Shown here piece by piece: positions 8,929-27,228 of a DNA stretch of 64,000 bases. Location of the stretch: IMG/VR virus record IMGVR_UViG_3300020440_000010, positions 1 through 64,000 of that record. One strand, given 5' to 3'. The position numbers and the translations under genes are program-made. Position 1 is the first letter of the stretch. Each line of letters opens with the position of its first letter. This DNA comes from a virus. Taxonomy: Duplodnaviria; Caudoviricetes. Under the pieces are notes generated by a model. The model had not been told where the DNA came from, did not search any database, and was given only the letters and a program-made list of their open reading frames with translations.

Positions 8929-9222
8929 ATGTACAAAGTGATGATGTCAGTATTTTTAGCAGTAGGATTGTTAATTGCAGTTACGACTGGAATTGCAAAC
9001 TCAAATGAAAATACAGTATTACCAGAGAAGAAGCCTTTTACACTTGCACTTAAAAGCAAAGTGAATAGTGTCAACGATTGGTTAAACTCTAGACCAGACG
9101 CAGTGAACAACTGGGTTGAAGAAACTAAAGAGTACCAAAAGAATAGTTGGGCAGAAGGCAAAGCACAATTGATTAGAAATAAAAATTCTATCAAGTACTT
9201 TTTCTTAGGTGAAGAAAAGTAA
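8929..9222 (+). CDS. Hypothetical exported protein
   Basis: SD GGAGG; signal-peptide-like N-terminus. Confidence 0.7.
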   Translation: MYKVMMSVFLAVGLLIAVTTGIANSNENTVLPEKKPFTLALKSKVNSVNDWLNSRPDAVNNWVEETKEYQKNSWAEGKAQLIRNKNSIKYFFLGEEK

Positions 9223-10793: not shown

Positions 10794-12378
10794 GAAAATT
10801 GTAATTGTAGGCGGCGGCAGTGCAGGATGGATGACTGCTACTACCTTAGTGAAATTGTTTCCTAGTATGCACGTTACACTTGTAGAAAGTCCTAATATTC
10901 CAATTGCTGGTGTTGGTGAAAGCACAATAGCAGGAATTAATGAATGGATGAAACTTGTTGGCGTTGAAGATAAAGACTTTATGAAAGAAACAGATGCTAC
11001 ATATAAATTAAGCATCAAGTTCAATAATTTTTACAAACAAAATGACGGAGGATTTCATTATCCTTTTGCTTATCCAGATACAGAAGGTTGTGTATATGGA
11101 ACCAACGACTGGCACTATAAGAAACTAAAGTATCCAGAAACTCCCAATAGCGATTATGCAAATTGTTTTAGTAGTGCTATGGCATTGGTAAATGAAAACA
11201 AATTTGATAAGAACATAGATAACAAGTTACCAAGTTACAGATATGGAATAGACACAGCCTATCACTTCGATGCTACTAAATTTGGACTATGGTTAAGAGA
11301 TAAAATTTGTATACCTGGAGGTGTTGAACACATCACAGAAGAAGTTAACAATGTTCTATATGAAAAAGGCAAAGGTGTAAAAGGTTTAGTGTTGGGCAGT
11401 AATCTTGTTGTGCAAGGAGACTTGTATATTGACTGCACAGGATTTAGATCTTTGTTGCTAGATAAAACACTTAAAGAACCTTTTGAATCGTTTGCTCATA
11501 TGCTACCTAATAATAGAGCATGGGCAACTAGAATGCCATACACAGATAAAAGAAAACAGATGGAACCATTCACAGACTGTACTGCCTATAACAATGGTTG
11601 GATATGGAATATTCCATTGTGGAGTAGAATTGGTACAGGATATGTTTACAGTGATAAACACATTACTCCTGAACAAAGTTTAAATGAATTTAAAATGTAT
11701 CTAAGTGCAAAGCATGATGTAAACGTAGATGATTTAGAGTACAGAGATATTAAAATGCGTATAGGTATGCATGATAGGATCTGGGTTGAAAATGTATGTG
11801 CTATTGGATTGAGTGCAGGATTTATAGAACCACTAGAATCAAACGGATTATACACAGTTCATATGTTCTTGGTTGCCTTTGCTAGAACATTATTAAGAAG
11901 TGAAGGTAAACAAAATCATGTAGCAAGTAGATTTGATATAGATAGTTTCAACATGATTACTAATAAAATGTTCAAAGACTTTGCAGGCTTTGTGGCCATG
12001 CACTATGCTCTTACTCAAAGAACAGACAATCAATATTGGTTAGACAACTATAATAGAAATTATGAATATGATCTACTAGATGAAAACAATCCTTTCATAC
12101 ATGAACTTAAACTGTATGGTGTTGATCGTATGAAACACATGAATCTTACAGGCAATGGTTGGCCAGATATCGCAACAGGTATGGGATACAATCCTATTGA
12201 TAGAATAAGCGAAAAGATTGTTCCTGAAATGTATGAACTTAAAGATCATCATTATGATAGAATTATCAAACATCTTGACGATAGAAAAGCACGTTGGAAA
12301 GAAATCGTAAAGCATTGTCCTACCATGTATGACTACTTAAATACTACTATATTCAAGGACGTGGACAATGACAGTTGA
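10786..12378 (+). CDS. Flavin-dependent halogenase 2, tandem paralogue
   Basis: GGGSAG, ATYKLSIKF, WIWNIP, GFIEPLES; collinear with 9222..10793. Confidence 0.88.
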   Translation: MNKKIVIVGGGSAGWMTATTLVKLFPSMHVTLVESPNIPIAGVGESTIAGINEWMKLVGVEDKDFMKETDATYKLSIKFNNFYKQNDGGFHYPFAYPDTEGCVYGTNDWHYKKLKYPETPNSDYANCFSSAMALVNENKFDKNIDNKLPSYRYGIDTAYHFDATKFGLWLRDKICIPGGVEHITEEVNNVLYEKGKGVKGLVLGSNLVVQGDLYIDCTGFRSLLLDKTLKEPFESFAHMLPNNRAWATRMPYTDKRKQMEPFTDCTAYNNGWIWNIPLWSRIGTGYVYSDKHITPEQSLNEFKMYLSAKHDVNVDDLEYRDIKMRIGMHDRIWVENVCAIGLSAGFIEPLESNGLYTVHMFLVAFARTLLRSEGKQNHVASRFDIDSFNMITNKMFKDFAGFVAMHYALTQRTDNQYWLDNYNRNYEYDLLDENNPFIHELKLYGVDRMKHMNLTGNGWPDIATGMGYNPIDRISEKIVPEMYELKDHHYDRIIKHLDDRKARWKEIVKHCPTMYDYLNTTIFKDVDNDS

Positions 12379-13021
12379 AGTAGTAACACAAAAAGTTGAA
12401 GGAAAAGAAGAGTCTTTTATGGAGTTTGAAAACTTTCTCCATGAGGTTGACTATGAAAAAATTTTAAAGCACGTTGACGATGCTGACTTGCCTTGGCATT
12501 GGAACACTAAGACAGCAGGCAAAATCAGTTTGCCTAATCTACCACAAATAAGAGATTGTGGACAGTTTGTTCACATTTTACATGATAGTAGACAAATGGG
12601 ATTTTCACCCTATGAGCAAATAGCAGAACTTATCACACAAGGACTAACAAAACATTTACAAATGGACGTGGATGTTGTTGATAGAATAAAACTTAATTGT
12701 ATGGTTCCGCAACCTAATTGGGAACGCAGTCAGTTTAATATGCCACACTGCGACAAGCATTTAGAAGGTGGAGAAGATGTAAACTATCTAACTGCAATTT
12801 ACTATATCACAGACAGTGACGGTCCGACCTATTTCTTTAACAAATATTGGGGAGACAGTTTTGAAGATATGGAGGTAGAAGATTACTGCATACCTAAAAA
12901 GAATAAACTCATATTATTTCACAGCACCAAGTATCATACAAGCAGTCCGCCAATGAAGTATGACAGAAGAATTGTTGTGAATGCAGTATATAAAGTGAAG
13001 GAAAAGAATGACAACGTATAA
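12368..13021 (+). CDS. Putative 2OG-Fe(II) oxygenase
   Basis: MPHCD..AIYYI.DSDGPT.FF..ILFHS.KYHTSSPP...RIVVN. Confidence 0.75.
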   Translation: MTVEVVTQKVEGKEESFMEFENFLHEVDYEKILKHVDDADLPWHWNTKTAGKISLPNLPQIRDCGQFVHILHDSRQMGFSPYEQIAELITQGLTKHLQMDVDVVDRIKLNCMVPQPNWERSQFNMPHCDKHLEGGEDVNYLTAIYYITDSDGPTYFFNKYWGDSFEDMEVEDYCIPKKNKLILFHSTKYHTSSPPMKYDRRIVVNAVYKVKEKNDNV

Positions 13022-13697
13022 TAAATGGCAAACACCTTTCTATGTTGGTGAAGTTAAAGACCACGCGAAAGTTGTGGATGCTTTCATGCCATTTATTTTA
13101 AAAGAAAAGGATTACTTTCATGCACCTTGGACGTTAGCAAATTGTTTATCAAGTTGTCATCATGAACTTAACGCACAGATGCCGTGGGATATATGGTGGG
13201 ACGCAGTATCGCCAAACTTTGCAGAATACCTAAACAGTCTAGAACCTGTTGCAGACTATGAAATTAAATTATTAGACAGTTGGTGTAATATTTACAAGGA
13301 AGGCGGTTTCCAAGAAATACACGATCATTCTGCACCTAAGAATAATTTCAGTTGCAGTTACTTTTTTGAATATCCAGACGATACTGTTACTGGCGGCGAA
13401 CTTATATTGGAAAATACAAAGTTCACAGATATTACTGCTACCGGACTAGAAAACAAATTTAAAAGTTTCAATCAAAAATGTTTTATACCTAATGTAAAGA
13501 GCGGAATCATAGTAATATTTCCTAGTTGGATAAAACACTTTACTAGTCCTAACAAAAGTAAAAAACGAAGAACAACGTTTAGTGCTAATGTTGAAATAGA
13601 AACTAGGTTTACTCCAGAACAGATGCAAAAGTTTCCTATACAAGGTAGTGTGGGCGACTTTAATTTTAACTATCTAGGAGAAAATGATGCTAACTGA
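13008..13697 (+). CDS. Putative 2OG-Fe(II) oxygenase (TIGR02466-like)
   Basis: WCNIY..GGFQEIHDH, FSCSYF, IFPSWIKH, RTTFSAN. Confidence 0.8.
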   Translation: MTTYNKWQTPFYVGEVKDHAKVVDAFMPFILKEKDYFHAPWTLANCLSSCHHELNAQMPWDIWWDAVSPNFAEYLNSLEPVADYEIKLLDSWCNIYKEGGFQEIHDHSAPKNNFSCSYFFEYPDDTVTGGELILENTKFTDITATGLENKFKSFNQKCFIPNVKSGIIVIFPSWIKHFTSPNKSKKRRTTFSANVEIETRFTPEQMQKFPIQGSVGDFNFNYLGENDAN

Positions 13698-14319
13698 AGC
13701 AACACCCTGGCCTAGTATTATACACAAGGCACACTATGATGGTGACCTTAGCAAAATTGTAAGCAAGGTAAGAGCAGAACACATAAACGTACAACCTAAC
13801 ATAGGTGTAATGCAAGGTGGCGGCAAAACTAGTGTACGCAATCAAAAGACTCCGCCTCATACTTGGCAAGAAACTGTTGACCTAATGGAATGGTTTAAAC
13901 CTATCGTAGCAGAGTTGTGGAGCAAGTTTGAATATACAGAAGCAACTTTATCAATATTAAAAAGTTGGACAAACATACAACGTAACAAAGCATACGTAGA
14001 AGAACATGATCATGGTGGTTGTCATTTCGCAGTAAGTATGTATTTAGAAAAGCCTGAGGGCAGTGGTAACATACAATTTAGAAATATGAATTTACCTTTA
14101 CAAAACAACACACCTAAGAAATGGAAACAAGCAGGTATTAATGATTACTTTACAGAAGTAGAAGCAGTGACAGGAGATGCACTTATATTTCCTGGTTGGT
14201 TAAGTCACAGGGTACCACCTAATCCTACAGACCAAGAACGTATTGTTTTAAGTTTTAACATACATGGAATATGTGAAGGATCACCAACTTTAATTGGAAC
14301 GGCAAAAGAGGATGTATGA
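13684..14319 (+). CDS. Putative 2OG-Fe(II) oxygenase (TIGR02466-like)
   Basis: SWTN..EEHDH, P.GSGNIQF, FPGWLSHRV, RIVLSFN. Confidence 0.8.
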   Translation: MMLTEATPWPSIIHKAHYDGDLSKIVSKVRAEHINVQPNIGVMQGGGKTSVRNQKTPPHTWQETVDLMEWFKPIVAELWSKFEYTEATLSILKSWTNIQRNKAYVEEHDHGGCHFAVSMYLEKPEGSGNIQFRNMNLPLQNNTPKKWKQAGINDYFTEVEAVTGDALIFPGWLSHRVPPNPTDQERIVLSFNIHGICEGSPTLIGTAKEDV

Positions 14320-14834
14320 TAACCAAAAAAGAATTTTCAAAAGTGTTAACAAACCCAGAGTGGTTTATTCAAGGATCAATTTATACAATCATTGATGGTA
14401 AAGATGCTAGAGTAAATGAAACTTATAAATCCTACACAGATTACATAAGCAATTTGCCTACACTTATAGAAAACAAAACAGTCTTTAAAATACAAGACCT
14501 TGAAAAGTTTAACAGTGGCATTGTAAAAAAATGTTCACAGTTATTTGATGTATGGAAAAAGCCTGTGAACTGTCATGCCTATTGGGGTTATGCTGATACA
14601 ACAAGTTTCGATAAACACACAGACCCCTGTGAAGTTTGCATTTACATCTGTGAAGGTAATAAGCAAATAGATTTAGATCAACAACAGAGTATATTACGCG
14701 AAGGACAACACTTGTACATTAAAGCAAATCAGCCACACGCCGCTCGAAATATTACAGATTGTTTAAGCCTAAGTTTTGGCACTGAAGACTTTTCAGAAAG
14801 TTATTGTACTACAGGAATGGATATAAGTTTATGA
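14316..14834 (+). CDS. Cupin/JmjC-like oxygenase
   Basis: NCHAY...SFDKHTDPCEV...EG.K...LYI...PHAA. Confidence 0.7.
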   Translation: MITKKEFSKVLTNPEWFIQGSIYTIIDGKDARVNETYKSYTDYISNLPTLIENKTVFKIQDLEKFNSGIVKKCSQLFDVWKKPVNCHAYWGYADTTSFDKHTDPCEVCIYICEGNKQIDLDQQQSILREGQHLYIKANQPHAARNITDCLSLSFGTEDFSESYCTTGMDISL

Positions 14835-15910
14835 AAGATCTAATGATATATCTTAAGACTACAGAAACCTGTAATCTAAATTGTGCCCATTGTTTTACTA
14901 GTGGTATAAATGGACGTAAGATATATTTTGATACAGATAAAATTATTGATTGGTTCAAACGAATGAAAGAAGTGTTTCCTAGTTTTAGATCAGCACACAT
15001 AGACTTTCATGGTGGTGAACCTTTCCTTGCACCTATTAAAGATATGCAAAAAGTTTATGATGAAGTAAGCACACTTTATCCTGAAATGAGTTGGGGAACT
15101 ACAACTAATCTTGTGTATAAACTTACCGATGAAAAATTAAATTTTATGCGAACTGCATTAAACAAACGTGTAGGTACAAGTTGGGATCCTAAGATTAGAT
15201 TTGCTAATGACAAACAAAAAGAACTTTGGGAGAATAACGTTAGAACTTTAATTGCAGACGGATTTACAATAAAACTATTTGTAAGTATGAGTCGTGATGT
15301 AACTAACACAGACCCAAAAGAAATATTAGACTATGCAATAGGATTAGGAATACAAGAAATAGATTTTGAAAGGATTACACTAGATGGAAATGCCACAAAG
15401 AATTTAGCACTATGGCCTAGCAACAAAGAATTAGATGCTTGGTTTTTAGAGTATCACGAAGTAATTAAAAAGTACGATATGCGGGAAAAGATATATAATA
15501 CCTTTATGGAAAACATTTATGCCAAATTTGAACTAGGATTTCCTGATGCAGGAACATGGTGTAGAAACTGTGAGCAGAAGATGTTTACCTTAAATGCAGA
15601 TGGTACAATCGCAGGCTGTCCAAATTCAGCACCTAATGATCACTATGGGCATATAGATATGCCAATATATGAACTACTATTAAGTCCAAAAAGACGTAAT
15701 ATAATCGCCTGTGAAACTGCTAGAGACCCTAGATGCTTTGAATGTCCAGTATTTGACGTATGTGGCAGTGACTGTCACCAACTAGAATGGGAAGGTGATG
15801 TGTGTGCGTCGCCAAAAACACTCATGATGAAACTGAAAGATGATATAAATACACATACATTAAACAAAAAAGCGAAGTTTAACGAGAGATTATTAAAGGT
15901 ACATAACTGA
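14831..15910 (+). CDS. Radical SAM/SPASM protein 1
   Basis: CNLNCAHC, FHGGEP, and C-terminal CRNC..GTIAGCP..CFECPVFDVCGSDC..C; start moved to MKDLMIY. Confidence 0.92.
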   Translation: MKDLMIYLKTTETCNLNCAHCFTSGINGRKIYFDTDKIIDWFKRMKEVFPSFRSAHIDFHGGEPFLAPIKDMQKVYDEVSTLYPEMSWGTTTNLVYKLTDEKLNFMRTALNKRVGTSWDPKIRFANDKQKELWENNVRTLIADGFTIKLFVSMSRDVTNTDPKEILDYAIGLGIQEIDFERITLDGNATKNLALWPSNKELDAWFLEYHEVIKKYDMREKIYNTFMENIYAKFELGFPDAGTWCRNCEQKMFTLNADGTIAGCPNSAPNDHYGHIDMPIYELLLSPKRRNIIACETARDPRCFECPVFDVCGSDCHQLEWEGDVCASPKTLMMKLKDDINTHTLNKKAKFNERLLKVHN

Positions 15911-16467
15911 TGGCAACACTAACAAATCCAATTAGAAAGCAGAATCTAGTAGATAGATTCGCTGATTTTGTGGCTAATCACAACAATAGCCAAATTGTAT
16001 GGGGAACAAACAGTAAACCATTTTCACAGATGCCTGACAGTGAATTTACAGGTTCAACAGCAGGTAGATCAATAGGCATCACAGGTGCAAGTATTACAGG
16101 GGATACCATTGATTCAAGCAATATGATCTCTGCATTAGAAGGTGAAGCATATCAATATACAAGAATACGTAAGATGAGAGCAAGGCTGTTGATGCAGACG
16201 TCGGGCACAGGTGAAGCAAATCCAAGAGTAGATTTCAATCAAACACAAGTTGCTTATTTGGCCGCGGCCAGAAGACTAACACTTGATGGTATCAATGCTT
16301 CGACTGTTGAAGAAGATGATCTAGTAAGTGTTACTGGTCTTGAAACTTATTTTGCAGACCTACAAAGAGAAATGAACGAGAAGAGGGATACAACATATAA
16401 CAAGGACGTAACAATCTGTCACAGCAGTTGTCACAGTAATTGTCATGCTTCAAGAGGCAGAAGATAA
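15910..16467 (+). CDS. Candidate radical-SAM substrate: 185-aa protein ending in a Cys-His repeat (CHSSCHSNCHASRGRR)
   Basis: Coupled to rSAM1 by TGATG; the only Cys and most His residues sit in the C-terminal (CHxx)3 repeat at 16417-16452. Confidence 0.7.
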   Translation: MATLTNPIRKQNLVDRFADFVANHNNSQIVWGTNSKPFSQMPDSEFTGSTAGRSIGITGASITGDTIDSSNMISALEGEAYQYTRIRKMRARLLMQTSGTGEANPRVDFNQTQVAYLAAARRLTLDGINASTVEEDDLVSVTGLETYFADLQREMNEKRDTTYNKDVTICHSSCHSNCHASRGRR

Positions 16468-17201
16468 TGCAGAAAACCACAATCGCTCCTATTCCGTTAG
16501 AAGATCTAAAAGAATATTTTGCTAACAAAGAATTAACATTTTTAATAGATTACGAAAACAGTACACTTAAAGGTGAAAAGTTTCTAACTTATCTTAGCAA
16601 CCTAGATGTACCATGTGATGTAGTGCTTGGTAAGGACAAAGATAGTATACTAGAACTTGTTGAAGTGTATATGAATACTAGAATGCTTGTGAAATTACCC
16701 ACTTTAGAAATTATTGTGTTACAGATCCTAATGGCTAGCAAAGAAATAGATAATGGTTTGTACTATGACAATAAAATATTTTCTTTTGATGAATTAAAGC
16801 AGTTTGTCAAAGATAACAGTGAACTTGTAAACAAGTGGTTAGTTGGTTTAGTGAGTGGCTCACTGTTTAATATACATTGTATCAATGACGACAAGATCAA
16901 AGAATCACTTGATGATTTTGAAAAGGTAGAGGATGATCAATTTTGCGGTATCAACTATGCTAACCTTTACAAATATGAAGAATTATATGAAATATTTCCT
17001 ATGGTATCAATGGAAGATAGAAAGTTTTTAGTAAAACAGTTTACAGAACCTATGTTTAAAGGCGAATCTTTATACAATTATTGGTTCGTTCCTGGTAATG
17101 TAGTCGCTTTAATTACGGAAGCAGTCAGTGTCGGAGCATGGGATAAAGATAAATATTTAAAAGCAAAGGAAGAGAGCGTCAAAAATGTACCTACTGTTTG
17201 A
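16467..17201 (+). CDS. Hypothetical protein in the rSAM cluster
   Basis: Start moved to MQKTTIAP (TAATG overlap). Confidence 0.75.
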   Translation: MQKTTIAPIPLEDLKEYFANKELTFLIDYENSTLKGEKFLTYLSNLDVPCDVVLGKDKDSILELVEVYMNTRMLVKLPTLEIIVLQILMASKEIDNGLYYDNKIFSFDELKQFVKDNSELVNKWLVGLVSGSLFNIHCINDDKIKESLDDFEKVEDDQFCGINYANLYKYEELYEIFPMVSMEDRKFLVKQFTEPMFKGESLYNYWFVPGNVVALITEAVSVGAWDKDKYLKAKEESVKNVPTV

Positions 17202-18276
17202 TAGAGTTTATGTAAAACCAATGTATATGCTGGACATGGAACGTCCACGTGTTATTATTTCGCCTGATGCTTCATCTGAACTATTAGACGGCATTGAAAC
17301 CAAGTTTAGAAACTTAGGTGAAATGTTTTACAATGTCGACGGATACAATCAATTAGTGGGTGGCGAAGGTGAATTCGCAGATGACAAAGAGTTTTTCAAT
17401 TGGTTGCTTGACAAAGGTAGAGTTGATGTGTTTGTTGACAGCAACGCATATCATAAAATATTTGTTAAGTGGATTAAAATTATGTATCCTGATATACAAA
17501 AAGAACTTGCTTGGAAAATATATTCATTAGTGTCTACGCATACTAGACTTACTGTAAGATCAATGTTTACTTGGGGTACAGATAACGAAGGTGTTGATGC
17601 ACAAAAAACTCAAGCAAATGAATTTAAATGGCTTACACAAGATCAATTCCAAGGTTTATTTAAAACAGTACAGGTAGTAAAAGACAATGCGTTAGTGGGT
17701 AGAGTAAGAGCAAAAGCACCTATGGAATTTATTGTGGCTGGTAAGTTAAATGGTAAAACTACTTATGATGAGGCTTTAAAACAAAAAATGTATGCAATAG
17801 GTATTAAAAAAGTAAGAGATGAAATGAATCACGTTAAAAATCATTTACTACATAATATTAATAAAGCATGGGTACAAAAATTAGTTGGAGTTTCATACAC
17901 TGCTGGTGATGATCTTTTTGCACTTAAAGGCACAAATGCCAAAATTGATTTTCTATTAGACGAAATGTCTGAAGATGCATTATCAACTCATGATGTAGAC
18001 ATAGCAGATTTAAGAGAAGGTGCTCTTACTGAAGCAGGTGCACCAGATGGAGATTCAGATATTGGATTACCAACTTGGTTTATTAAAGCATTACAGAGTT
18101 CTTCAGGATCTATAGATTCAGCAACACTTGATAAAATTATTGAGTTTGAAGTGAACAATGTTATCAGTTTATTTGAAGTAGATGATAGAGCAAAAGTAAA
18201 TGTGATGTTATTAAATTACTTTTATAATCTTAAAAATAACAACACAGACGAATTAGCACACTATTCAATAGGCTAA
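17185..18276 (+). CDS. Hypothetical protein in the rSAM cluster
   Basis: 363-aa ORF overlapping the preceding gene. Confidence 0.75.
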   Translation: MYLLFDRVYVKPMYMLDMERPRVIISPDASSELLDGIETKFRNLGEMFYNVDGYNQLVGGEGEFADDKEFFNWLLDKGRVDVFVDSNAYHKIFVKWIKIMYPDIQKELAWKIYSLVSTHTRLTVRSMFTWGTDNEGVDAQKTQANEFKWLTQDQFQGLFKTVQVVKDNALVGRVRAKAPMEFIVAGKLNGKTTYDEALKQKMYAIGIKKVRDEMNHVKNHLLHNINKAWVQKLVGVSYTAGDDLFALKGTNAKIDFLLDEMSEDALSTHDVDIADLREGALTEAGAPDGDSDIGLPTWFIKALQSSSGSIDSATLDKIIEFEVNNVISLFEVDDRAKVNVMLLNYFYNLKNNNTDELAHYSIG

Positions 18277-18307
18277 TACACTTTTCAACAACCCCATAAA
18301 TATCTAT

Positions 18308-18865
18308 ATGATAGAAAAACACTGGGCAACACCTATCTATTCTCATCAGTATAATGATGACGATGATTGGAATCACAAATTAGACATTTTGCTAAAAGCC
18401 AAAATGACTGATATGAAATCAGAAGGGCATACTAATATTGCTGATGTCAATGTTAGTTTCAAACCATTTCCTGATATCATGGATAGATTCAAAACTGCGT
18501 TTGATGAACTTTGTGATGTGTATGAACACCCAAAAAATTATAATATAACTGATCTAAATATAATCAATCCTATGAATTTTGGAGATTACAAAAGCGTTCA
18601 CTCACATGATAAGATTGATGCTTTTGGAATTTTCTATGTTGATGTGGGTACAGAAACATCAGGCGGACATTTAAAATTATATGATCCTAGATGGCAGAAT
18701 CAAAAATCATTTGTAGGATCCAAACCATACATGGAAATAGTTCCCAAGAAAGGATTGCTAATTGCCGCTCCTCATTATGTTTGGCACGAAGTCACTCCGT
18801 ATGTTGGGGACTTGACAAGATTAAGTTTAGTGTGTAATATGCAGTTTAACGAAATAGTAGAATGA
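18308..18865 (+). CDS. Putative 2OG-Fe(II) oxygenase (TIGR02466-like)
   Basis: SVHSHD, GGHLKLYDPR, PHYVWHEV, RLSLVCN. Confidence 0.78.
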   Translation: MIEKHWATPIYSHQYNDDDDWNHKLDILLKAKMTDMKSEGHTNIADVNVSFKPFPDIMDRFKTAFDELCDVYEHPKNYNITDLNIINPMNFGDYKSVHSHDKIDAFGIFYVDVGTETSGGHLKLYDPRWQNQKSFVGSKPYMEIVPKKGLLIAAPHYVWHEVTPYVGDLTRLSLVCNMQFNEIVE

Positions 18866-19863
18866 TAGAACACAACATTATTACAAAAACTAACAAACGA
18901 AGTATCCTTGGCGAGATCATTGTGACTCTGTTTGAGCAGTGTAATATGAGTTGTAAATTTTGTAATCAAGATCATAACAGCAAAGTAGGAATGGATACTA
19001 TCAAAGACAAGTTACCGGTAGTAAAACGTGCAATAGAAAACATGAGCAAAACTAGAGAAATGTTTAGTGTGCATTTTATGGGCGGTGAAGTGTTTAGTGA
19101 TTTAGTACCTGACAGTTGTTTTGATGATTACAAATATCTAGCAGACGAACTAGAAGCATGGAGTAAAGAAAACAACTACGATGTAGAAATATGCTTTACT
19201 ACAAACTTTGTATATGAACAAACACATAGACTACAAAAACTACTAGACCAATGTCCACAGGTAAAATTGTTAACCAGTTACGATCCTAGTGGACGTTTTG
19301 GCCTAGGTCAATTAAATGTATTTAAAAAGAATGTAATAGCATTTGAAAAGTATATTAAGAGTGCAAATGTAATAATGACTAAACCTAATATAGATAAGTT
19401 CTTAAAAGGCAATACACCTTTCTTTGATTATCTCTATGATAGGTATGACATTTATTTTGATTATTACACACCAGAAAAGAATAGAAAGTTGATGACTCCT
19501 AATGATGTTCAATTGCGTGACTTTATGATTTATATGTTTGACAACTATCCTAACTGTTTGCCATTCAAAGATTATCCTAGTAAAATTAAAAAACGTATGA
19601 CTTGCCAAGATACATTTACAATAATGCCAAGTGGCGATGCAGGCGGCTGTACTATTTTGTTATCACAAGATTTATCAGGGTACAAACCAACCAAAGAAGA
19701 AATGGAACAAAAATGGTTTGACGATTATAATTGTTTAGAATGTCCACACTTTCAGAGATGTTCAATGGGTTGTTTTTTAAGCAATCATCTAAAAAGTTTT
19801 AGAACACAGGAAGTGTGTTGGTTATCGGAGGTTTACGATTATGTTGATTCAAAAGAAGTTTGA
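18862..19863 (+). CDS. Radical SAM/SPASM protein 2
   Basis: CNMSCKFC, FMGGE, and C-terminal CQ..GGC..CLECPHFQRCSMGC..C. Confidence 0.9.
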   Translation: MIEHNIITKTNKRSILGEIIVTLFEQCNMSCKFCNQDHNSKVGMDTIKDKLPVVKRAIENMSKTREMFSVHFMGGEVFSDLVPDSCFDDYKYLADELEAWSKENNYDVEICFTTNFVYEQTHRLQKLLDQCPQVKLLTSYDPSGRFGLGQLNVFKKNVIAFEKYIKSANVIMTKPNIDKFLKGNTPFFDYLYDRYDIYFDYYTPEKNRKLMTPNDVQLRDFMIYMFDNYPNCLPFKDYPSKIKKRMTCQDTFTIMPSGDAGGCTILLSQDLSGYKPTKEEMEQKWFDDYNCLECPHFQRCSMGCFLSNHLKSFRTQEVCWLSEVYDYVDSKEV

Positions 19864-20494
19864 TGCTAATAATTTTTACAAGCATGGTTTTGATGTTGTT
19901 GAAATGCCAAAACAATTATCTACTTTACTGTGGGCACAGATATCTTTAGAAGATTGGAACCCCCACGGAGTATATAAAAATGTTCCGTCATGGAGCATGA
20001 ATAATGATATGGTAGTGGGTAGTGTTGACAGAAAGTATGATAGAAACAAAGAACAAGAAATGTGTAAAGAAAGTTTAGATAGAGTTCCGCTTATATACAA
20101 AGATACACTTACTGCTCTTTTTAACGAAGAATATTATAGAAACTGGTTTGTAAAAACTTGTGGGTACAATTGGGAAATGCGTTTTATTGATTTATGGAAT
20201 GGCAGTGACAGTTTAGACTGGCATTGGGACGGAGTAGAAGACCATGACATTGGATTTTTAATTTACTTTACAGAAGAGCCTACATGGAACGAAGAGTGGG
20301 GAAGTGTGTTGAAAGTAGGAGAAAGAGATTGGCCAGATACTAATGTACAAAATGTTAGGAAAATTATTCCTTTAAATGGAACGGTGGTATTACTAAACAA
20401 CATGAATCCTAGATTTGTTCATAGTGTAGATACACTGGTTGACACAACTAAAAATAGATATACAATAAATTGTGGAATAAGTTTATGGAATTAA
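19841..20494 (+). CDS. 2OG-Fe(II) oxygenase
   Basis: LDWHWDG, LIYF..W.EEWG.VL, FVHSV, RYTI. Confidence 0.82.
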   Translation: MLIQKKFDANNFYKHGFDVVEMPKQLSTLLWAQISLEDWNPHGVYKNVPSWSMNNDMVVGSVDRKYDRNKEQEMCKESLDRVPLIYKDTLTALFNEEYYRNWFVKTCGYNWEMRFIDLWNGSDSLDWHWDGVEDHDIGFLIYFTEEPTWNEEWGSVLKVGERDWPDTNVQNVRKIIPLNGTVVLLNNMNPRFVHSVDTLVDTTKNRYTINCGISLWN

Positions 20495-21105
20495 ATGTAG
20501 ATAAATTTTGGACAGACGGGTATGATGTAACTACTCTTGATGATGAAAAGTATTCAATGTTGTGGAGTTTGATACACAATGAGACTTGGGTAGATGGTAT
20601 ATTTCCTATTCAAAAGGTTGCTAGTTGGAGTAATACTACAAAAGAAAATTTAAAAGATAGAGTAGAAGATATATCCCCTAATTTAACAATGTGGAATGTG
20701 CCTGTAGAATACGATCAAATAATGAACGATATATGGAAAAGCGATTACTATCAAAAATTCTTTAGAGACTATGCTAAAAAAGTAGGAAAGATAGAATATA
20801 TTGATGTGTGGAATAAAACACCAGCACATGAATGGCACAGTCATACTCCTGATAATGTAGATTTAGTATTGTTAGTTTATCTAAATGAACAAGAGCAATG
20901 GAAACGTGAATGGGGCGGAGTACTGCAAGTAGGTACGAAAACAATTGAAACCAACGAAGTAGGAAACGTACATTCTATTTTGCCAAACAATAAAACAGTA
21001 GTGCTTATCAATAATATCAACCCAAGAATTTTTCATAGTGTTACAGAACAAATATCTGAAAACAATAGATATACAATTGGAGCAGGAATTAAGTTATGGA
21101 ACTAA
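20485..21105 (+). CDS. 2OG-Fe(II) oxygenase, paralogue of 19841..20494
   Basis: HEWHSH, LVYLN..W.REWGGVL, IFHSV, RYTI. Confidence 0.8.
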   Translation: MELNVDKFWTDGYDVTTLDDEKYSMLWSLIHNETWVDGIFPIQKVASWSNTTKENLKDRVEDISPNLTMWNVPVEYDQIMNDIWKSDYYQKFFRDYAKKVGKIEYIDVWNKTPAHEWHSHTPDNVDLVLLVYLNEQEQWKREWGGVLQVGTKTIETNEVGNVHSILPNNKTVVLINNINPRIFHSVTEQISENNRYTIGAGIKLWN

Positions 21106-22202
21106 TTATAAAACCCACAGAATTGTGCAACTTTAAATGTACCTTTTGTTCTAGTACAAAGATTGCAGAGCATGGTAAAGTAGTTTTAGACCATGAACAC
21201 ATTTTTAGATTCTTAAAAAGATATCCTAATACAAATACAATTATTGTTAATGGTGGTGACCCGTTGATGATGGATCCTGATTACTATTGGAAAATTATAG
21301 ACTATCTTGACGAACACGAGATGTCAACAAGTATTGCGTTGACTACTAACCTTTGGCCTTTTTACAAGAAGCCTAGCAAATGGAAAGCATTGTTCAACAA
21401 TGAAAGGATAGGCGTTACAACCAGTTTCAATTACGGTGATGGTAGATTAAAAGGAGACTTTAGTTTATTCACAGTAGAAGACTTTTGGCGTGTAAGTGAT
21501 GCTATGTTAGAACACTGTAACTATCGACCAGACTTTATTGCAGTTGTTACAGACAGCAATGATCACCTTGCTATGAAAAATGTAGAACTTGCTGTTGAAA
21601 TGAGTGACGGCGTAGAACCCGGCGGTACATTACATAACTTTGCTCGTAACAATAAAACTGGTGTTGAATGCAAATTAAATTATGCAATGAGCAGTGGAGA
21701 ACAAGATAGACCATATCTACTATCCAAGATTTACAAAACTTATGTAGATATATGGGAAGCAGGATTGGCTCCATGGGAGTTCAATACAAAACAAATGATG
21801 AAGCGTTTGAAAGGAAACGCTACCTCTTGTCCACAGAACAGACGCTGTGACGAAGGAATTAGAAGTATGAATCCTGGCGGAGACTATTATAGTTGTGGTG
21901 CATTTGGTGATGATATGGAGAAACCAATAGATTTTGAAAAAGAAATGAATGGGGATTTCTTTACACCATTACAGGATAGTTTTGAACTTGCAAGTATGAA
22001 AAAATCATGTTATACTTGTCCTATGTTTGAAATATGCAATGGTTGTAGAAAAACAGTTAAGGATTTCAAAAGACACAAAGTTGTTGAAGCACACTGTAAA
22101 ATAATGAAGACTGTTGCACCCAAAATACTAAAAGCAAACGGTTTGGAGGGAGTAGAAGTTACTCCGTATGTAAATGAAACTATTGAAACAAGACAAGCCT
22201 AA
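21096..22202 (+). CDS. Radical SAM/SPASM protein 3
   Basis: CNFKCTFC, NGGDP, and C-terminal CPQNRRC..YYSCG..CYTCPMFEICNGC..C. Confidence 0.92.
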   Translation: MELIIKPTELCNFKCTFCSSTKIAEHGKVVLDHEHIFRFLKRYPNTNTIIVNGGDPLMMDPDYYWKIIDYLDEHEMSTSIALTTNLWPFYKKPSKWKALFNNERIGVTTSFNYGDGRLKGDFSLFTVEDFWRVSDAMLEHCNYRPDFIAVVTDSNDHLAMKNVELAVEMSDGVEPGGTLHNFARNNKTGVECKLNYAMSSGEQDRPYLLSKIYKTYVDIWEAGLAPWEFNTKQMMKRLKGNATSCPQNRRCDEGIRSMNPGGDYYSCGAFGDDMEKPIDFEKEMNGDFFTPLQDSFELASMKKSCYTCPMFEICNGCRKTVKDFKRHKVVEAHCKIMKTVAPKILKANGLEGVEVTPYVNETIETRQA

Positions 22203-22926
22203 TATTAGAAGTTATTATGGTGATGGATATGATATTGTAGATGTTGATCTAAGTGTGATTGATCATCTTGGTTCTTATATACTACAGGAAAATTTTAGTG
22301 ACAGTCCTCTACATCCAGGTATATCACAACCGGATTGGGACGCAGACTATACTAATATTACCAAAGAGTTTTATGAAGCACAACAAAAGTATATTGATAT
22401 ACTTAAACCTTTGGTTGAAAAAGAAAACTATTTTGATTACTGGCGTACATTACGAGGACCATTTGATGAACTTATTGTAAGCATCAACAAAATGGATAAA
22501 GGTAGTAAGATGGATTGGCATTGGGACGGTTTTGATGGTAGTATGTTACAATTGATGTTGTATGTAAACTTAGAAGAAAGAACACGAGAAGATGGAGGAT
22601 TTTTAGAAGTAGGTGTATCGTATGAACCTATGATAAACCAAGATGATCCTTTCCCACACTGGTCGCCTGAAACAGGCTTAAACAAAGTTACTGGGCACGT
22701 GATGTCTAAGTGCAGTTATGTACCTAAGAATGATAAAGCAATTATATTAAACAATGATAATCCTTTGTATGTTCATAGAGTAACAGAATGCAAAACTGAC
22801 AAACCTAGGTACAGTGTATTATTACAATGCGGATATAAAACACTTTGGGACGGAAACTCACTAAAGAACAACGGTGGACAATATAAAGATCCACGTACAG
22901 GAATGATTACAAAATTAAACCTATGA
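22174..22926 (+). CDS. 2OG-Fe(II) oxygenase
   Basis: MDWHWDG, LYVN..DGGFLEV, YVHRV, RYSV. Confidence 0.8.
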   Translation: MKLLKQDKPNIRSYYGDGYDIVDVDLSVIDHLGSYILQENFSDSPLHPGISQPDWDADYTNITKEFYEAQQKYIDILKPLVEKENYFDYWRTLRGPFDELIVSINKMDKGSKMDWHWDGFDGSMLQLMLYVNLEERTREDGGFLEVGVSYEPMINQDDPFPHWSPETGLNKVTGHVMSKCSYVPKNDKAIILNNDNPLYVHRVTECKTDKPRYSVLLQCGYKTLWDGNSLKNNGGQYKDPRTGMITKLNL

Positions 22927-23483
22927 AGAACAAACAATTTTCAAATGGCAGAATTCACGGATCAAGATTTGAAGAAGCAGTATATCATGACGGATATCTT
23001 GCATTTTCTGTAAGTCCTTTTGATCAAGACTTTGAAAATGAAATAGAGGATGGTGTACTACCTCATGTGAAAGTGTTGACTACTAAAGGCTATTGTCCTA
23101 TCAGCAGTTGTCATGGTCATTACGAACACGGTAAATGGATGCCTTGGTATGTGATGATAGCACTAGGGGACAATGCCGTGAAACAAAAACAAATAATACT
23201 AGATGCAATTAAAAACATACCAGGAATATATACTGAAACAAGAAAGCAAAGTGCTAATGTTATTAATGGTAAAACTGTATTTGACAAAGTTGATCTGGAT
23301 AAAGAATATGAAGAATTGAATAAAATGTTTTTACGCAAAAACACAACTTGGGAATATTTGTATATCAGTTTGTTTCAACACAGAACAATTTACAATAAAA
23401 TTGCAAAACTATTATTTTTTACACACAGTAAAAATAAATTATTTTATGCTTTAGAAAGATTACCAGATGAACATATCAATTAA
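22923..23483 (+). CDS. Hypothetical protein
   Basis: Coupled ORF containing SSCHGH. Confidence 0.7.
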   Translation: MKNKQFSNGRIHGSRFEEAVYHDGYLAFSVSPFDQDFENEIEDGVLPHVKVLTTKGYCPISSCHGHYEHGKWMPWYVMIALGDNAVKQKQIILDAIKNIPGIYTETRKQSANVINGKTVFDKVDLDKEYEELNKMFLRKNTTWEYLYISLFQHRTIYNKIAKLLFFTHSKNKLFYALERLPDEHIN

Positions 23484-24381
23484 TCCTAGTTATTTTTGTA
23501 ATTTTCGTTGTGACTTCTGTTATCTAACGCCCGAGCAACTTGCAGATCAAAAGAAAATAGATTTGCAAAGATTAGATGATATGTTAGCAGAAGTAAAAGA
23601 ACAAGATGATATTCATCATATTGATTTATATGGAGGAGAGATAGGAGCATTAAAGAAAGATTACTTCTATGGTTTACGTGATGTAATAAGAAAATACTAT
23701 GACAAGGACATTAATATAAACACAAACTTTTCTATGCTACACGATGGCTTCTTTGAAAAAGACTTTTACTTGAGTGTAAGTTATGACTTTGAAGCAAGAG
23801 AGAAGCATGAATTAGTATACAAAAACATGATGTTGTCACCAGTGCCTATCGCAGTATTAGTATTGGTATCTCCAACTATTTTACAAAAAGATGTAGATGA
23901 AATGATTAGAATGTTTAACCTTTGTACTCCTGTAAAAAGTGTAGAGTTAAAACCATATAGTATTAATCAAGCCAATGCTCATAATGTAACACACAAAGAC
24001 TTTGAGCAACACGTAATTAAATGGATACAATCAAAAGAAGATATGCAATTTGCATTTATAAACGATTACAAGATACAAGACAGTATTGAAAAAACTTACA
24101 ATGCATTTAGTAACGATCATGTATATATTACTCCTAATGGTAAGTTTGGAGTACTGGAGTTTGACAAAGATGACAAAGAATATTTTTTAGAACTAGACAG
24201 TTATAAAGATTACAAACTATGGGCAGACAAAGAGCCAGACGTTAATTGTAGTGATATCTGTAAGTCATGCAAATACTATGGACACTGCCTAACAGAACAC
24301 TATAGATACGTTAAGGATCTAGACAACGGATGTAACGGATATAAAGGACTATTAGAATTTTATGAAAGACTGGAAAGTTAG
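23467..24381 (+). CDS. Radical SAM/SPASM-like protein 4
   Basis: CNFRCDFC, LYGGE, and C-terminal CSDICKSCKYYGHC..CNGY. Confidence 0.9.
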   Translation: MNISINPSYFCNFRCDFCYLTPEQLADQKKIDLQRLDDMLAEVKEQDDIHHIDLYGGEIGALKKDYFYGLRDVIRKYYDKDININTNFSMLHDGFFEKDFYLSVSYDFEAREKHELVYKNMMLSPVPIAVLVLVSPTILQKDVDEMIRMFNLCTPVKSVELKPYSINQANAHNVTHKDFEQHVIKWIQSKEDMQFAFINDYKIQDSIEKTYNAFSNDHVYITPNGKFGVLEFDKDDKEYFLELDSYKDYKLWADKEPDVNCSDICKSCKYYGHCLTEHYRYVKDLDNGCNGYKGLLEFYERLES

Positions 24382-24769
24382 ACAAGAAATATATCATAGG
24401 TTGAATAGCGATCACTCTGATGATTTAAACAGAGTAGAAATACAAGAGTGTCCTGATAGTCAATTACTTGATTACGCAATCGAATATTTTACCAACGACA
24501 AACTAGGTTGGGTCTATCCTGCTAAGAGTTATGTAGTTGGAATTTGCTATGCACTCTGGTTGACCAAAGACTTTGGAGGCGGGTTCTATGAATATCTAAA
24601 TGATCCTGAATTGCTGTATGGAAATGATCCCTATTTTGTTCCTTATGACAAAGATCAACAAACGTACGATAATATTATCAACAGTGTAGGATTTGGATTC
24701 GATCAACGTCTTGGAGTCATACCTGATATACGCCATTACTATGAAGAGGAGTTTATGCTTAATGATTGA
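24362..24769 (+). CDS. Hypothetical protein in the rSAM cluster
   Basis: Overlaps the rSAM4 stop; SD AGGA upstream region. Confidence 0.7.
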   Translation: MKDWKVRQEIYHRLNSDHSDDLNRVEIQECPDSQLLDYAIEYFTNDKLGWVYPAKSYVVGICYALWLTKDFGGGFYEYLNDPELLYGNDPYFVPYDKDQQTYDNIINSVGFGFDQRLGVIPDIRHYYEEEFMLND

Positions 24770-25367
24770 AACTAAAATAAGCAGTGATGGTGCCAACGAA
24801 GTTTTTATTAAGGCATCTGATCCACAAGCACTAGAGTATAAGTCTATGGTCCTAGCAGTTTGGCCTAACACAAATTTACAAGGATTACAAATGATTAGTT
24901 TTGACAAAACAAAAAACAAAGTCAATCTAACATTTGATGTGTATCCTAGTGAAGAGATCAAAAAAGAATTTGCTGTGGCAGACTATCATCAGTTCTGTGA
25001 TTACTATGCTGTCGAATGTTTTATAGATTTACAATGGCGTGTACTAAAAGTATATGATCAAAATTTACCAATGCACCCTTTACCTAGTTTACCAAAAGGA
25101 AGTAGGATAGATGTATTGAAAAGCGGAGTAGGTGTTTATTATGGTCGCAACGTAGAAGATTATAGAAAAGTTTATTTTCTACATGACGATATTGATTATG
25201 TAAAAGAGTTTTTCAATGATCTACAGTTACCAATTATTGTAAAGAAATACAAGTATGCAATATTTGGTTTGGAGTACAATGTTAAGACAATGAAATTACA
25301 TCACATTTCGTACTATGATATACAGGATAAGGATAATATATATAGTAAGGATAGTTTAAAACAATGA
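24762..25367 (+). CDS. Hypothetical protein
   Basis: Start moved to MIETK, with GAGGAG upstream. Confidence 0.65.
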   Translation: MIETKISSDGANEVFIKASDPQALEYKSMVLAVWPNTNLQGLQMISFDKTKNKVNLTFDVYPSEEIKKEFAVADYHQFCDYYAVECFIDLQWRVLKVYDQNLPMHPLPSLPKGSRIDVLKSGVGVYYGRNVEDYRKVYFLHDDIDYVKEFFNDLQLPIIVKKYKYAIFGLEYNVKTMKLHHISYYDIQDKDNIYSKDSLKQ

Positions 25368-25939
25368 CAACAGCAAATAAAAGAATAGCAGTAGTTGGAG
25401 CACACGGAGTAGGTAAAAATACAGTCTGTATAAAATTGTTGCAAAGAGAAAAGTTTGGACAACGCGGGATCAATGTAACATATATGCCTGAAACTGTGAG
25501 AAGCACAATGTTTATGAATCATGATATACTTGCCAATGAAATAGGCGGCGACATCAACAGTTGTGCCTGGTTGTATCATAGACACTGGAGCCAAATGCTA
25601 GAACATGAATACAGTTGCGAAGTGTTTATTACAAAAAGATTACCATTAGACTATGTTGTATTCAACGAATGTGCATACGTAATGAAGATGTGCAAAGAAA
25701 CACTACCTTTTCAGTATTTAGAATTAGCAGTTGAACAAGCAAAACAGTTTCATGAAGTTTATTTTGTAAGACATAATCCTGATCATGATTTGATTACAGA
25801 TAGCATTAGACAGGGTCCAGCGGCTAGTGAAGAACTTCAACCTTTGTGGGACACAAACTACAAAAGAATAATAGACGAATACGAAGTTCCTGTAATTGAA
25901 GGTACAGCAGGCGAACTACTAGAAAAGATTAAAGTATGA
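25364..25939 (+). CDS. P-loop NTPase/nucleotide-kinase-like (AAA_28/NadR-like)
   Basis: Walker A VVGAHGVGKNT followed by PETVR and KRLPLDY. Confidence 0.7.
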   Translation: MTTANKRIAVVGAHGVGKNTVCIKLLQREKFGQRGINVTYMPETVRSTMFMNHDILANEIGGDINSCAWLYHRHWSQMLEHEYSCEVFITKRLPLDYVVFNECAYVMKMCKETLPFQYLELAVEQAKQFHEVYFVRHNPDHDLITDSIRQGPAASEELQPLWDTNYKRIIDEYEVPVIEGTAGELLEKIKV

Positions 25940-27228
25940 ATATAGTTATTGTTGGAGGCGGCACTGCCGGTTGGCTCACTGCTCTTTCACTACATAAGAA
26001 ACATGATGTAACCTTAATAGAAAGTGAAATACCTACAATAGGAGTAGGTGAAAGCACAACTGACACTGTCATACGTTGGCTAAAGCAACGTGTGGATATG
26101 AAAGAATTTCACACAAAAACAAATAGCACATTTAAATTAGGTGTGCAGTTTGATAATTGGGTAAACAAAAATGAAACTTACTATCATTTGTTTGGTGATG
26201 TAGAAGACAAAGTACCTAATGGAAAATTTAACCAAGTGGTAAGATACTGTTTTCAGAATGGTATAAACTTAGATAATTTAAGTATATTTGACAAATGTAA
26301 AGAAGAAGATATGACTTGGGATAGTGTTGCTACCCATTGGGACAGTGTTGCAGTACCGGCCTATCTAAGACAAAAACTAGAACACAAAATATTAATAGTA
26401 AATGATACAGTCGAAAAGGTCCATTACGAAAACGAGTCTATTACAAAACTACAATTAGTCAATAGTACTGTTGAAGCAGATTTATATATAGACTGTACAG
26501 GATTTCATAGAGTTCTAACTAAAAATACAAATAATAAATGGATTGATTGGAACGCAAAAGGTCAAGTAGATCGTGCCCTAGTATGGCAAATGCCACACAA
26601 AGATACTATACCAACTTTTACTCAAGCAGAAGCATGGGACTATGGTTGGAGATGGAAAATACCTACCACTGATCGACTGGGAAATGGTTACGTGTTTGAC
26701 AGTGACTTTATAAGTGTAGAAGATGCAGAAAAAGAAATTAGAAAAAGAGTTGATTACAAAGGTCCTGTTAGACTTATAGAATTTAATCCCGGAAGGATTG
26801 AACAAGTATATTATAAAAATATAGTAAGTTTAGGATTAAGTTCTCATTTTCTTGAACCACTTGAAGCAACAAACTTTGATTTTTTAGTATATAATTTACA
26901 AAACTTAGATCTTGTTATAGAAGACAAAATAAATGTAGAACAATTTAATAAAAATGCAAACAGACTTGCTGAATCTATTAGAGAATTTGTCAAAATGCAT
27001 TACATAAACAACACAAACAATACTGCATTTTGGAAAGCACAAAACAAAAATCTGTGCGGAAATGCTATTAGGGTTATTGAAAATGCAGAAACCACTAATA
27101 ACCTTGCACCAGGTGGATTATTTACAGATTACAATTGGTACAAAGTTGCTCAAGGTGTTGGCATAAAGAGTAAAAGCAAAAATGATGATGCTGAATTACT
27201 AGCATTATTCCAATTAGCATCCATCTAA
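25936..27228 (+). CDS. Flavin-dependent halogenase 3
   Basis: GGGTAG, GVGEST, STFKLGVQF, WRWKIP, FLEPLEA. Confidence 0.85.
   Translation: MNIVIVGGGTAGWLTALSLHKKHDVTLIESEIPTIGVGESTTDTVIRWLKQRVDMKEFHTKTNSTFKLGVQFDNWVNKNETYYHLFGDVEDKVPNGKFNQVVRYCFQNGINLDNLSIFDKCKEEDMTWDSVATHWDSVAVPAYLRQKLEHKILIVNDTVEKVHYENESITKLQLVNSTVEADLYIDCTGFHRVLTKNTNNKWIDWNAKGQVDRALVWQMPHKDTIPTFTQAEAWDYGWRWKIPTTDRLGNGYVFDSDFISVEDAEKEIRKRVDYKGPVRLIEFNPGRIEQVYYKNIVSLGLSSHFLEPLEATNFDFLVYNLQNLDLVIEDKINVEQFNKNANRLAESIREFVKMHYINNTNNTAFWKAQNKNLCGNAIRVIENAETTNNLAPGGLFTDYNWYKVAQGVGIKSKSKNDDAELLALFQLASI

Follow-up and report, generated by a model that had tools for sequence, protein, structure and literature searches.

What does a phage do with four radical S-adenosylmethionine (rSAM) enzymes arranged around a small protein that ends in three Cys-His units? 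We addressed this question in the first 64 kb (hereafter the window) of the IMG/VR virus record IMGVR_UViG_3300020440_000010 (Caudoviricetes), an 82.6-kb record estimated to be around 30% complete; the window is AT-rich (around 35% GC). Radical SAM/SPASM enzymes are makers of secreted peptides, cofactors and active-site residues. In the literature, as far as we could find, none of them is tied to the building of a virus particle. On balance, we favor reading the region at 14316-24769 as a phage-specific protein-maturation module, in which a portable C-terminal tag of a virion protein would be matured by rSAM/SPASM enzymes devoid of a RiPP recognition element (RRE; RiPP, a peptide made by ribosomes and then modified post-translationally). 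Maturation of Cys-rich targets by rSAM/SPASM enzymes is already known; what is unusual here is the portable tag on virion proteins, the four dedicated RRE-less rSAMs and the restriction to phages.

A conserved C-terminal tag on interchangeable proteins

The tag-bearing protein (15910..16467, 185 aa) consists of an alpha/beta body and a C-terminal tag, CHSS-CHSN-CHAS-RGRR, which is encoded at 16417..16464 and directly followed by the stop codon. An earlier note on this DNA had remarked that the tail carries the only Cys residues of the protein, and the translation bears this out: all of them lie in the last 16 residues. The pattern CH..CH..CH has a single match in the six frames of the window.

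A protein search recovered 336 homologue clusters, most of them of marine metagenomic origin and about 185-190 aa in length. Identity to the query is 41-78% in the bodies, and the tails are almost unchanged (C-H-[AS]-S-C-H-S-[SN]-C-H-x-S-R-G-R-R, then stop). In an alignment of 46 sequences spanning the same range of identity, the tail holds 8 of the 12 invariant columns; C, H and R columns of the tag are invariant. This conservation is far beyond chance.

The tag is also portable. By searching for longer proteins and scanning IMG/VR for tag-encoding DNA, we found it on at least nine groups of bodies without detectable mutual similarity (two large families, two small groups and five singletons), ranging from 124 to 587 aa. 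Across these groups, its general form is (Cys-His-x-[Ser/Asn/Gln])3-Arg-x-Arg-Arg, around 16 residues long and always at the extreme C-terminus. Tagged proteins of 453-461 aa carry an N-terminal Pfam Gly_rich_2 domain, those of 396-587 aa have expanded or unrelated bodies, and those of 124-140 aa form a second family that often occurs in tandem pairs. The PHROG family phrog_35144 matches the tail only.

The AlphaFold2 (AF2) model of the 185-aa protein has a mean confidence (pLDDT) of 88.9. Because the last strand of the body ends at the first Cys and the tag itself is modeled with low confidence, the tag is likely to be exposed. The body has no Foldseek match in the PDB at E <0.001 (best VIA-wide Z, 3.7); in BFVD it matches only uncharacterized phage proteins, including gp170 of the Agrobacterium phage Atu_ph07, a relative of the tag protein in both fold and sequence.

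The tag travels with a fixed set of genes

The window proteins were placed by tblastn on 80 IMG/VR loci that had been retrieved through the tag family, and each gene was counted over those loci whose flanks were long enough. Nearly all of the 80 loci share the order cupin–rSAM1–tag protein–B–rSAM2–rSAM3–rSAM4–E. Thus the conserved unit begins one gene before rSAM1, where the earlier note had opened it, with a small cupin (14316..14834, 172 aa). The cupin was found in place in 57 of 76 loci and, being divergent, is probably under-detected. The earlier note had also staked its reading on homologues keeping both the CHxx tail and an rSAM neighbor, and they do: the tail is kept, and in 76 of 76 loci the gene directly upstream of the tag gene is rSAM1 (14831..15910). 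The remaining core genes are nearly as constant: protein B (16467..17201, 244 aa; phrog_20767) is in place in 74 of 74 loci, rSAM2 (18862..19863) in 68 of 68, rSAM3 (21096..22202) in 59 of 61, rSAM4 (23467..24381) in 58 of 58, and protein E (24362..24769, 135 aa; phrog_20737, 5e-48), always after rSAM4, in 56 of 58.

In the window, every gene at 14316-24769 lies on the + strand and the gene ends overlap or abut. Read directly, the junctions are ATGA between cupin and rSAM1, TGATG between rSAM1 and the tag gene, as the earlier note had it, and TAATG between the tag gene and B. The module genes would be co-transcribed and are partly translationally coupled.

The same core genes in the same order are present in three jumbo phages of unrelated lineages, namely Agrobacterium Atu_ph07, Ralstonia RSF1 and P. 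aeruginosa pPa_SNUABM_DT01 (DT01), whose tag proteins end in CHSSCHASCHNSRSRR, CHSSCHSSCHGSRGRR and CHTSCHTSCHSARGRR, respectively. The cupin is found in all three and E in RSF1 and DT01; relatives of RSF1 with the module are RSL2, the FLC phages and SURPRISE13. Overall, the lineages carrying the module are phiKZ-like, Rak2-like and marine T4-like, from ocean, soil, sewage and gut. Against phage records, megablast of the region and tblastn of the tag protein returned nothing; the divergent homologues there were found through rSAM1 and synteny. Other rSAM-rich phages, phiRP12/RP31 and Campylobacter CP220/CPt10, are not among the rSAM1 tblastn matches, and their open reading frame (ORF) tables and text give no cupin or recognizable tag-protein gene.

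Among around 185,000 prokaryote species (one genome each), 132 stretches fit the search pattern and only five are recognized relatives, all of them on contigs of metagenome-assembled genomes (MAGs). Therefore, the module is essentially phage-specific. Four of the five carry module genes; in the fifth (L097), two tag ORFs lie beside fiber-like and rSAM-like genes.

Finally, the cupin-rSAM-tag protein triad persists with an unrelated 587-aa body (L220), with a Gly_rich_2 fusion (L221) and with tandem bodies of around 130 aa, which argues that the tag is the partner of the enzymes. A fixed set of enzymes travels with a 16-residue tag across unrelated phage lineages, and the tag has moved between different proteins. 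Three phages that carry the full module are in culture (Atu_ph07, RSF1/RSL2 and relatives, and DT01), so that its function is open to direct test.

Variants of the tag and of its setting also occur. On a 231-kb contig (L132, IMGVR_UViG_3300028797_000096), a tag with four CH units (8105-8155, CHSN-CHSN-CHSN-CHTN-RSRR) sits on a 257-aa protein adjoining six rSAM-like genes. On a 208-kb contig binned as a human-gut 'Gemella' MAG (L096), a divergent homologue (10001-10561) ends in CHSSCHSNCHHR, without the RxRR end; it is flanked by several rSAM1-like genes, and tblastn found no cupin, B, rSAM4 or E. This locus is a possible natural experiment on the role of the RxRR end and of the cupin. Tandem pairs of the second body family, with each copy ending in a tag, are found in L097 (614-10030) and in 16 loci such as L101 and L167. 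In L167 the pair is around 4 kb from a compact block, cupin-rSAM1-rSAM3-rSAM4-E-rSAM2, without a B gene.

Four radical SAM enzymes without a recognition domain

The cluster motif CX3CX2C lies within residues 11-34 in all four rSAMs, as the earlier note had seen (residues 14-21 in rSAM1). It is invariant, together with the C-terminal Cys residues, in alignments of 29-71 orthologues, which places all four in the radical SAM superfamily. Three of the four score above the Pfam Radical_SAM cut-off (PF04055, 29.5 bits), among them rSAM4 (4.4e-7); rSAM2, at 20 bits in a genome search, is below. All four match phrog_1802 (5e-37 for rSAM2).

The SPASM-like C-terminus, which had been attributed to all four enzymes, is readable in three of them and reduced in rSAM4. 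Taking as the SPASM pattern the seven Cys of CX9-15GX4C ... CX2CX5CX3C ... C, which bind two auxiliary clusters, we found it fully conserved in rSAM1 and in rSAM3, the most conserved core enzyme with 12 invariant Cys. rSAM2 comes close: the pattern is readable in the window copy, and an alignment of 71 sequences keeps C27/C31/C34 and six C-terminal Cys without exception, with one Cys of the pattern conserved in fewer than 90%. In rSAM4, C11/C15/C18 and C265/C268/C274/C289 are invariant and the C-terminus has four Cys only, so that it probably binds one auxiliary cluster as a twitch-like or partial SPASM domain. Scores against TIGR04085 (cut-off 27) follow a similar order, with rSAM1 at the cut-off (27.0) and rSAM3 (21.9), rSAM2 (14.3) and rSAM4 below it. 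Given the rSAM1 score and the Cys pattern readable in rSAM1 to rSAM3, we assign these enzymes to the SPASM subfamily. rSAM3 is 51-73% identical across the marine loci and 51-63% identical to the copies of DT01, RSF1 and Atu_ph07.

No named NCBIfam model comes near its cut-off for any of the four. For rSAM1, the best are DarE (56 bits), DynA, PapB, CbpB, anSME and HxsB, all far under cut-off; for rSAM3, DynA and anSME (43 bits each); rSAM2 and rSAM4 have weak matches to sactipeptide and RiPP maturases. The rSAM1 profile covers the anSME structures 4k36-4k39 at full length and has its top PDB score with 8vpo, which a study of rSAM cyclopropyl synthases cites; rSAM3 weakly matches SuiB. Judged by these profiles, the closest resemblance of the four rSAMs is to SPASM enzymes that modify peptides or proteins. 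We also considered nucleotide or DNA hypermodification and cofactor roles of the MoaA/QueE type, and rejected them; the matches are weak and N-terminal, and the tag is left unexplained. The earlier note had named such families as the place where its reading would fail, and none of their cut-offs is reached.

CX3CX2C starts at residues 11-27, with no N-terminal extension before it in any of the four rSAMs, and this proximity to the N-terminus leaves no room for an N-terminal RRE. Nor did a Pfam scan of each alignment member find an RRE in B (28 members) or E (29 members), where matches were scattered and by chance. Among B, C, D and E, the fold comparison covered B, whose AF2 model (pLDDT 84) has no clear fold match in the PDB (best Z of 4.7 over 52 residues).

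As a side observation, the rSAM4 orthologue of Atu_ph07 (L001 15165-16052, 49% identity over 299 aa) is partly annotated in RefSeq: gp164, called a hypothetical protein, starts around 190 nt downstream.

The tag protein is a virion component in a cultured phage

The tag protein of Atu_ph07, gp170 (296 aa, 31.9 kDa), is listed for purified virions (8 unique peptides, 35% coverage), in gel slices 1-9 with peak abundance in slice 1 (entries of Table S5, PMC6102473). Slice number rises as size falls in these entries, with proteins of 127-137 kDa peaking in slices 1-2 and proteins of around 30 kDa in slices 7-8 (PMC6102473). By the same entries, gp170 runs far above its expected size on sodium dodecyl sulfate (SDS)-polyacrylamide gel electrophoresis. 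The enzymes gp171, gp168 and gp165 and protein B (gp169) do not appear in the portion of Table S5 that spans their gene numbers. According to the authors, gp170 is the start of a virion-gene cluster (CDS 170-215; PMC6102473).

Genomic position points the same way. Directly ahead of the module, most marine loci have a gp8-like baseplate wedge gene, a giant phrog_358 (DUF4815) gene and a fiber-like gene whose C-terminal domain is conserved. In L097, the tandem tagged pair comes after a 2859-aa fiber-like ORF and before an rSAM-like gene. rSAM cassettes have been noted in the host recognition cluster of pelagimyophages (PMC7029224) and, by its neighbors, the module of most marine loci sits in that cluster. 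The pelagimyophage cassettes and the rSAM genes of rSAM-rich marine T4-like genomes (PMC5332604) share the position after the gp8-like wedge, a giant VrlC-like protein and fiber genes, and are probably the same genes. Those two papers record the rSAM genes only, naming no tag, target protein or function. Genome papers list cupin, rSAM and 2-oxoglutarate (2OG) oxygenase genes simply as accessory (PMC11898562), and a comparative review of jumbo phages does not treat the module (PMC7824862). We found no paper naming the tag, its target protein or its function, and a literature search with the tag string gave nothing relevant; the earlier note likewise knew of no characterized phage system of this kind.

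The earlier note had left two options, a modified virion protein or a released RiPP with a leader of around 170 aa. The proteomic entries of Atu_ph07 speak for the former, with gp170 in the virions and the enzymes and B absent from the portion of the table covering them. In a classic RiPP system, the body would be a long leader and the modified 16-residue tail would be cleaved to a free peptide (a metallophore, toxin or signal) acting in infection. A precursor adjoining an rSAM/SPASM maturase does follow RiPP logic, some loci hold typical tailoring types such as 2OG oxygenases, B12-rSAMs and halogenases, and B, C or E could be an unrecognized protease. However, this option is weakened by an invariant core on bodies that vary or are unrelated, the reverse of RiPP families, by the confident fold of the body and by the failure to find an RRE. 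The conserved leader, variable core and dedicated protease or exporter family of a RiPP system are likewise not seen in the module core. Moreover, the body is kept in Atu_ph07 virions, at the 35% coverage listed, and the module sits among baseplate and fiber genes. On these grounds we favor a matured structural protein and consider a released peptide improbable.

Even less probable, in our estimate, is an auxiliary metabolic cluster that makes a small molecule or cofactor for the infected cell, with the tagged C-terminus as a scaffold or sacrificial donor, of the pyrroloquinoline quinone (PQQ), mycofactocin or pearlin type. The window neighborhood is indeed rich in oxygenases and halogenases, and invariant residues at the extreme C-terminus resemble the cofactor precursors PqqA and MftA. 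Nonetheless, neither oxygenases nor halogenases are conserved along with the core genes, all PqqE and MftC family scores stay far from their cut-offs, the module is restricted to phages and, by the entries cited above, the protein is a virion component in Atu_ph07.

Relation to known maturation systems

The closest systems with repeated Cys are the ranthipeptide/SCIFF (CteB, PapB) and sactipeptide synthases, where an rSAM/SPASM enzyme likewise lies beside a target with Cys every four residues and small polar residues between. PapB is also a short enzyme, and residues 7-318 of rSAM1 align to 6-319 of the 330 positions of its model. The score (39.9 bits against a cut-off of 340 for NF047865) is nonetheless far from membership, and PapB acts on Cys-X3-Asp/Glu whereas the tag has no acidic acceptor residue. 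While a ranthipeptide is a peptide of around 45 residues, here the tag is on a folded protein of 124-587 aa, with His after every Cys, four rSAMs and a phage-only distribution.

Another parallel is anSME, the anaerobic sulfatase-maturating enzyme, also an RRE-less rSAM/SPASM enzyme (around 370 aa), which modifies a short Cys/Ser motif ending in Arg, C-x-P/A-x-R, on a full-size protein. This motif is loosely echoed in C-H-x-S-R, the last unit of the tag. By score, rSAM1 (33.1 bits) and rSAM3 (43.5 bits) fall far below the anSME cut-off (TIGR03942, 349). The P/A position varies in the tag (G, S, N or A), there is no sulfatase domain, and three repeated units face four enzymes.

The earlier note had seen in the tail a fit to both the Cxxx-repeat and the His-Xaa-Ser classes of rSAM target; membership in either family is not supported by the scores. 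The His-Xaa-Ser system (HxsA-D) does share repeated His-x-Ser-like target units and more than one rSAM, yet the scores are 32.0 bits against 370 for HxsB and 27.4 against 267.9 for HxsC, and neither HxsA nor HxsD has a match at E <0.1 in the tag protein, B, C, D or E. Unlike in that system, Cys is invariant in every tag unit, and since the third residue after it can be S, N or Q from one family to another, the His-x-Ser pattern is not strictly kept. The CXXX-repeat maturase model (TIGR04115) gives 27.7 bits against 350, over the N-terminal 100 residues only. DarE and DynA, the maturases of daropeptides and dynobactin, are the best-scoring named models for rSAM1 (DarE, over its full length) and rSAM3; both are SPASM enzymes without an RRE, and they cross-link short motifs by ether, C-C or C-N bonds. 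Their cut-offs (650 and 450) are far above the scores here, and their targets are Trp-rich heptapeptides exported as antibiotics rather than virion-protein tags. These scores place the rSAMs of the module outside the Hxs, CXXX-repeat, anSME, PapB and DarE families. HtkB, a His-type three-residue cyclophane synthase (compare HaaB), is reported to link His-C2 to the C-beta two residues downstream (PMC11499958).

A possible maturation pathway

The tag is invariant, always C-terminal, carried by interchangeable bodies and found within a few genes of the same cupin-plus-rSAM set. For these reasons, we infer that it is the substrate of the enzymes. By analogy with the systems above, candidate chemistries for each unit are a thioether at Cys, known from ranthipeptides and sactipeptides, a His-to-C-beta link of the kind that His-type cyclophane synthases form, and oxidation of Cys or Ser, for example to formylglycine as by anSME.

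In such a pathway, the flexible tag would extend from the folded body and enter the rSAM active sites directly, like the sulfatase or leaderless substrates of anSME- and PapB-type enzymes. Hydrogen abstraction at tag residues would then lead to intramolecular cross-links, to oxidation of Cys or Ser, or to both; the cross-links may be Cys-S-to-carbon thioethers and/or His-to-C-beta links inside each four-residue unit, and the cupin may contribute further oxidation. The matured protein would be built into the virion, probably in the baseplate or tail-fiber (host-recognition) region, where the modified tag could form a rigid clasp that possibly binds metal or makes covalent cross-links. The top-band migration of gp170 would be consistent with an electrophilic or cross-linking product, and also with SDS-resistant oligomers.

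A more specific proposal, which we put forward tentatively and hold to be rather doubtful, is that the rSAMs and the cupin turn the (CHxx)3-RxRR tag into a new cross-linked structure that serves as a covalent staple to baseplate or fiber partners or as a built-in metallocenter. If true, the tag would be the first structural part of a virion to be radical-SAM-matured, and a portable 'maturation tag' that is grafted onto different host-recognition proteins by phages. Should the tag be modified in any of these ways, it would bring new enzyme chemistry on a Cys-His motif and a new principle of virion assembly or host recognition, and would account for the rSAM genes that have long been recorded in marine myophages. 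Protein engineering might also make use of a short tag that has its own enzymes.

The main competing explanation, which we judge unlikely, is that the tag stays unmodified and forms a metal or iron-sulfur (Fe-S) site of three Cys-His pairs, possibly across subunits, and that the rSAMs and cupin act elsewhere. Their targets might be other virion proteins, a small molecule or a cofactor, with the tag protein serving to carry a cluster or as a scaffold. Metal is classically bound by Cys-His pairs spaced four residues apart, residues 172-181 are helical in the AF2 model (with low confidence), and four enzymes seem too many for one short tag. In addition, the rSAM-rich marine T4-like phages also carry Fe-S assembly genes (PMC5332604). 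A metal site alone nevertheless leaves unexplained the strict adjacency of cupin, rSAM and tag genes, their translational coupling and why the triad is retained with unrelated bodies. It also does not account for the invariant RxRR end or the limitation to S, N or Q at the third residue after Cys, and the rSAMs resemble SPASM enzymes that modify peptides and proteins.

Several points weigh against maturation of the tag by the neighboring enzymes. Modification of the tag is something we infer, and the link between enzymes and substrate is drawn from gene neighborhood. We know of no precedent for four different rSAMs acting on one 16-residue tag, and some of the four may have other substrates. 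The three Cys-His pairs could bind metal without any modification, and the pathway gives no role to B, C and E. The gel anomaly, as listed, is that of a single experiment on a single phage, and aggregation or SDS-resistant oligomers, instead of covalent links, could be its cause. In the window, finally, no recognizable baseplate genes adjoin the module; ligase, halogenase and oxygenase genes lie upstream, so the positional argument is indirect here.

Cupin, accessory genes and neighborhood

The cupin (Pfam Cupin_2, 1.6e-7) has H87, H101-x-D103 and H141 invariant in 57 orthologues, and its PDB relatives are small Cupin_2 metal proteins such as TM1459. A match to JmjC_2 (PF08007) reaches 26.8 bits (cut-off 22) over only around 35 residues, with no single stretch that passes. 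We downgraded a reading of this protein as a JmjC-type Arg/His hydroxylase to a small metal cupin.

The earlier note was right about an overlapping run with four interleaved 2OG-Fe(II) oxygenases, and counted four ORFs of unknown function where there are five, starting at 16467 (B), 17185 (C), 22923 (D), 24362 (E) and 24693, the last overlapping E. Protein C (17185..18276, 363 aa) is conserved and fast-evolving and is homologous to RSF1 ORF072; it has no Pfam, NCBIfam or PHROG match, and in other loci its position is filled by a gene of around 356-376 aa. ESM Atlas gave no usable match for B or C. Protein D (22923..23483, 186 aa) is sporadic, being detected in a minority of loci, and has no family match in Pfam, NCBIfam or PHROG.

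The 2OG oxygenases lie at 18308..18865 (2OG-FeII_Oxy_5, 5.5e-8), at 19841-20494 and 20470-21105 (two paralogues, 2OG-FeII_Oxy_4) and at 22174..22926 (2OG-FeII_Oxy_3, 1.2e-5, just under cut-off). The last is found only in near relatives and the others vary among loci, as do halogenases and B12-rSAMs. Accordingly, the 2OG oxygenases are accessory and not core, and the earlier note's view of them as partners in the tag system is not sustained.

The rest of the window encodes a DNA ligase, a ribonucleotide reductase, tail-spike-like genes and three genes resembling flavin adenine dinucleotide (FAD)-dependent Trp-halogenases (9222-10793, 10780-12378 and 25936-27228; phrog_2928, around 1e-140; Pfam Trp_halogenase, 7e-87). 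A run of three 2OG oxygenases (12368-14319) leads into the module, with two of the three halogenase genes just upstream of this run, and a halogenase is common only to the nearest relatives (L013 and L014) and one other group of loci. Downstream of E come the overlapping 224-aa ORF (24693-25367) and an AAA_28-like P-loop protein (25364-25939), both found only in the closest relatives and in the L070/L074/L083/L091 group.

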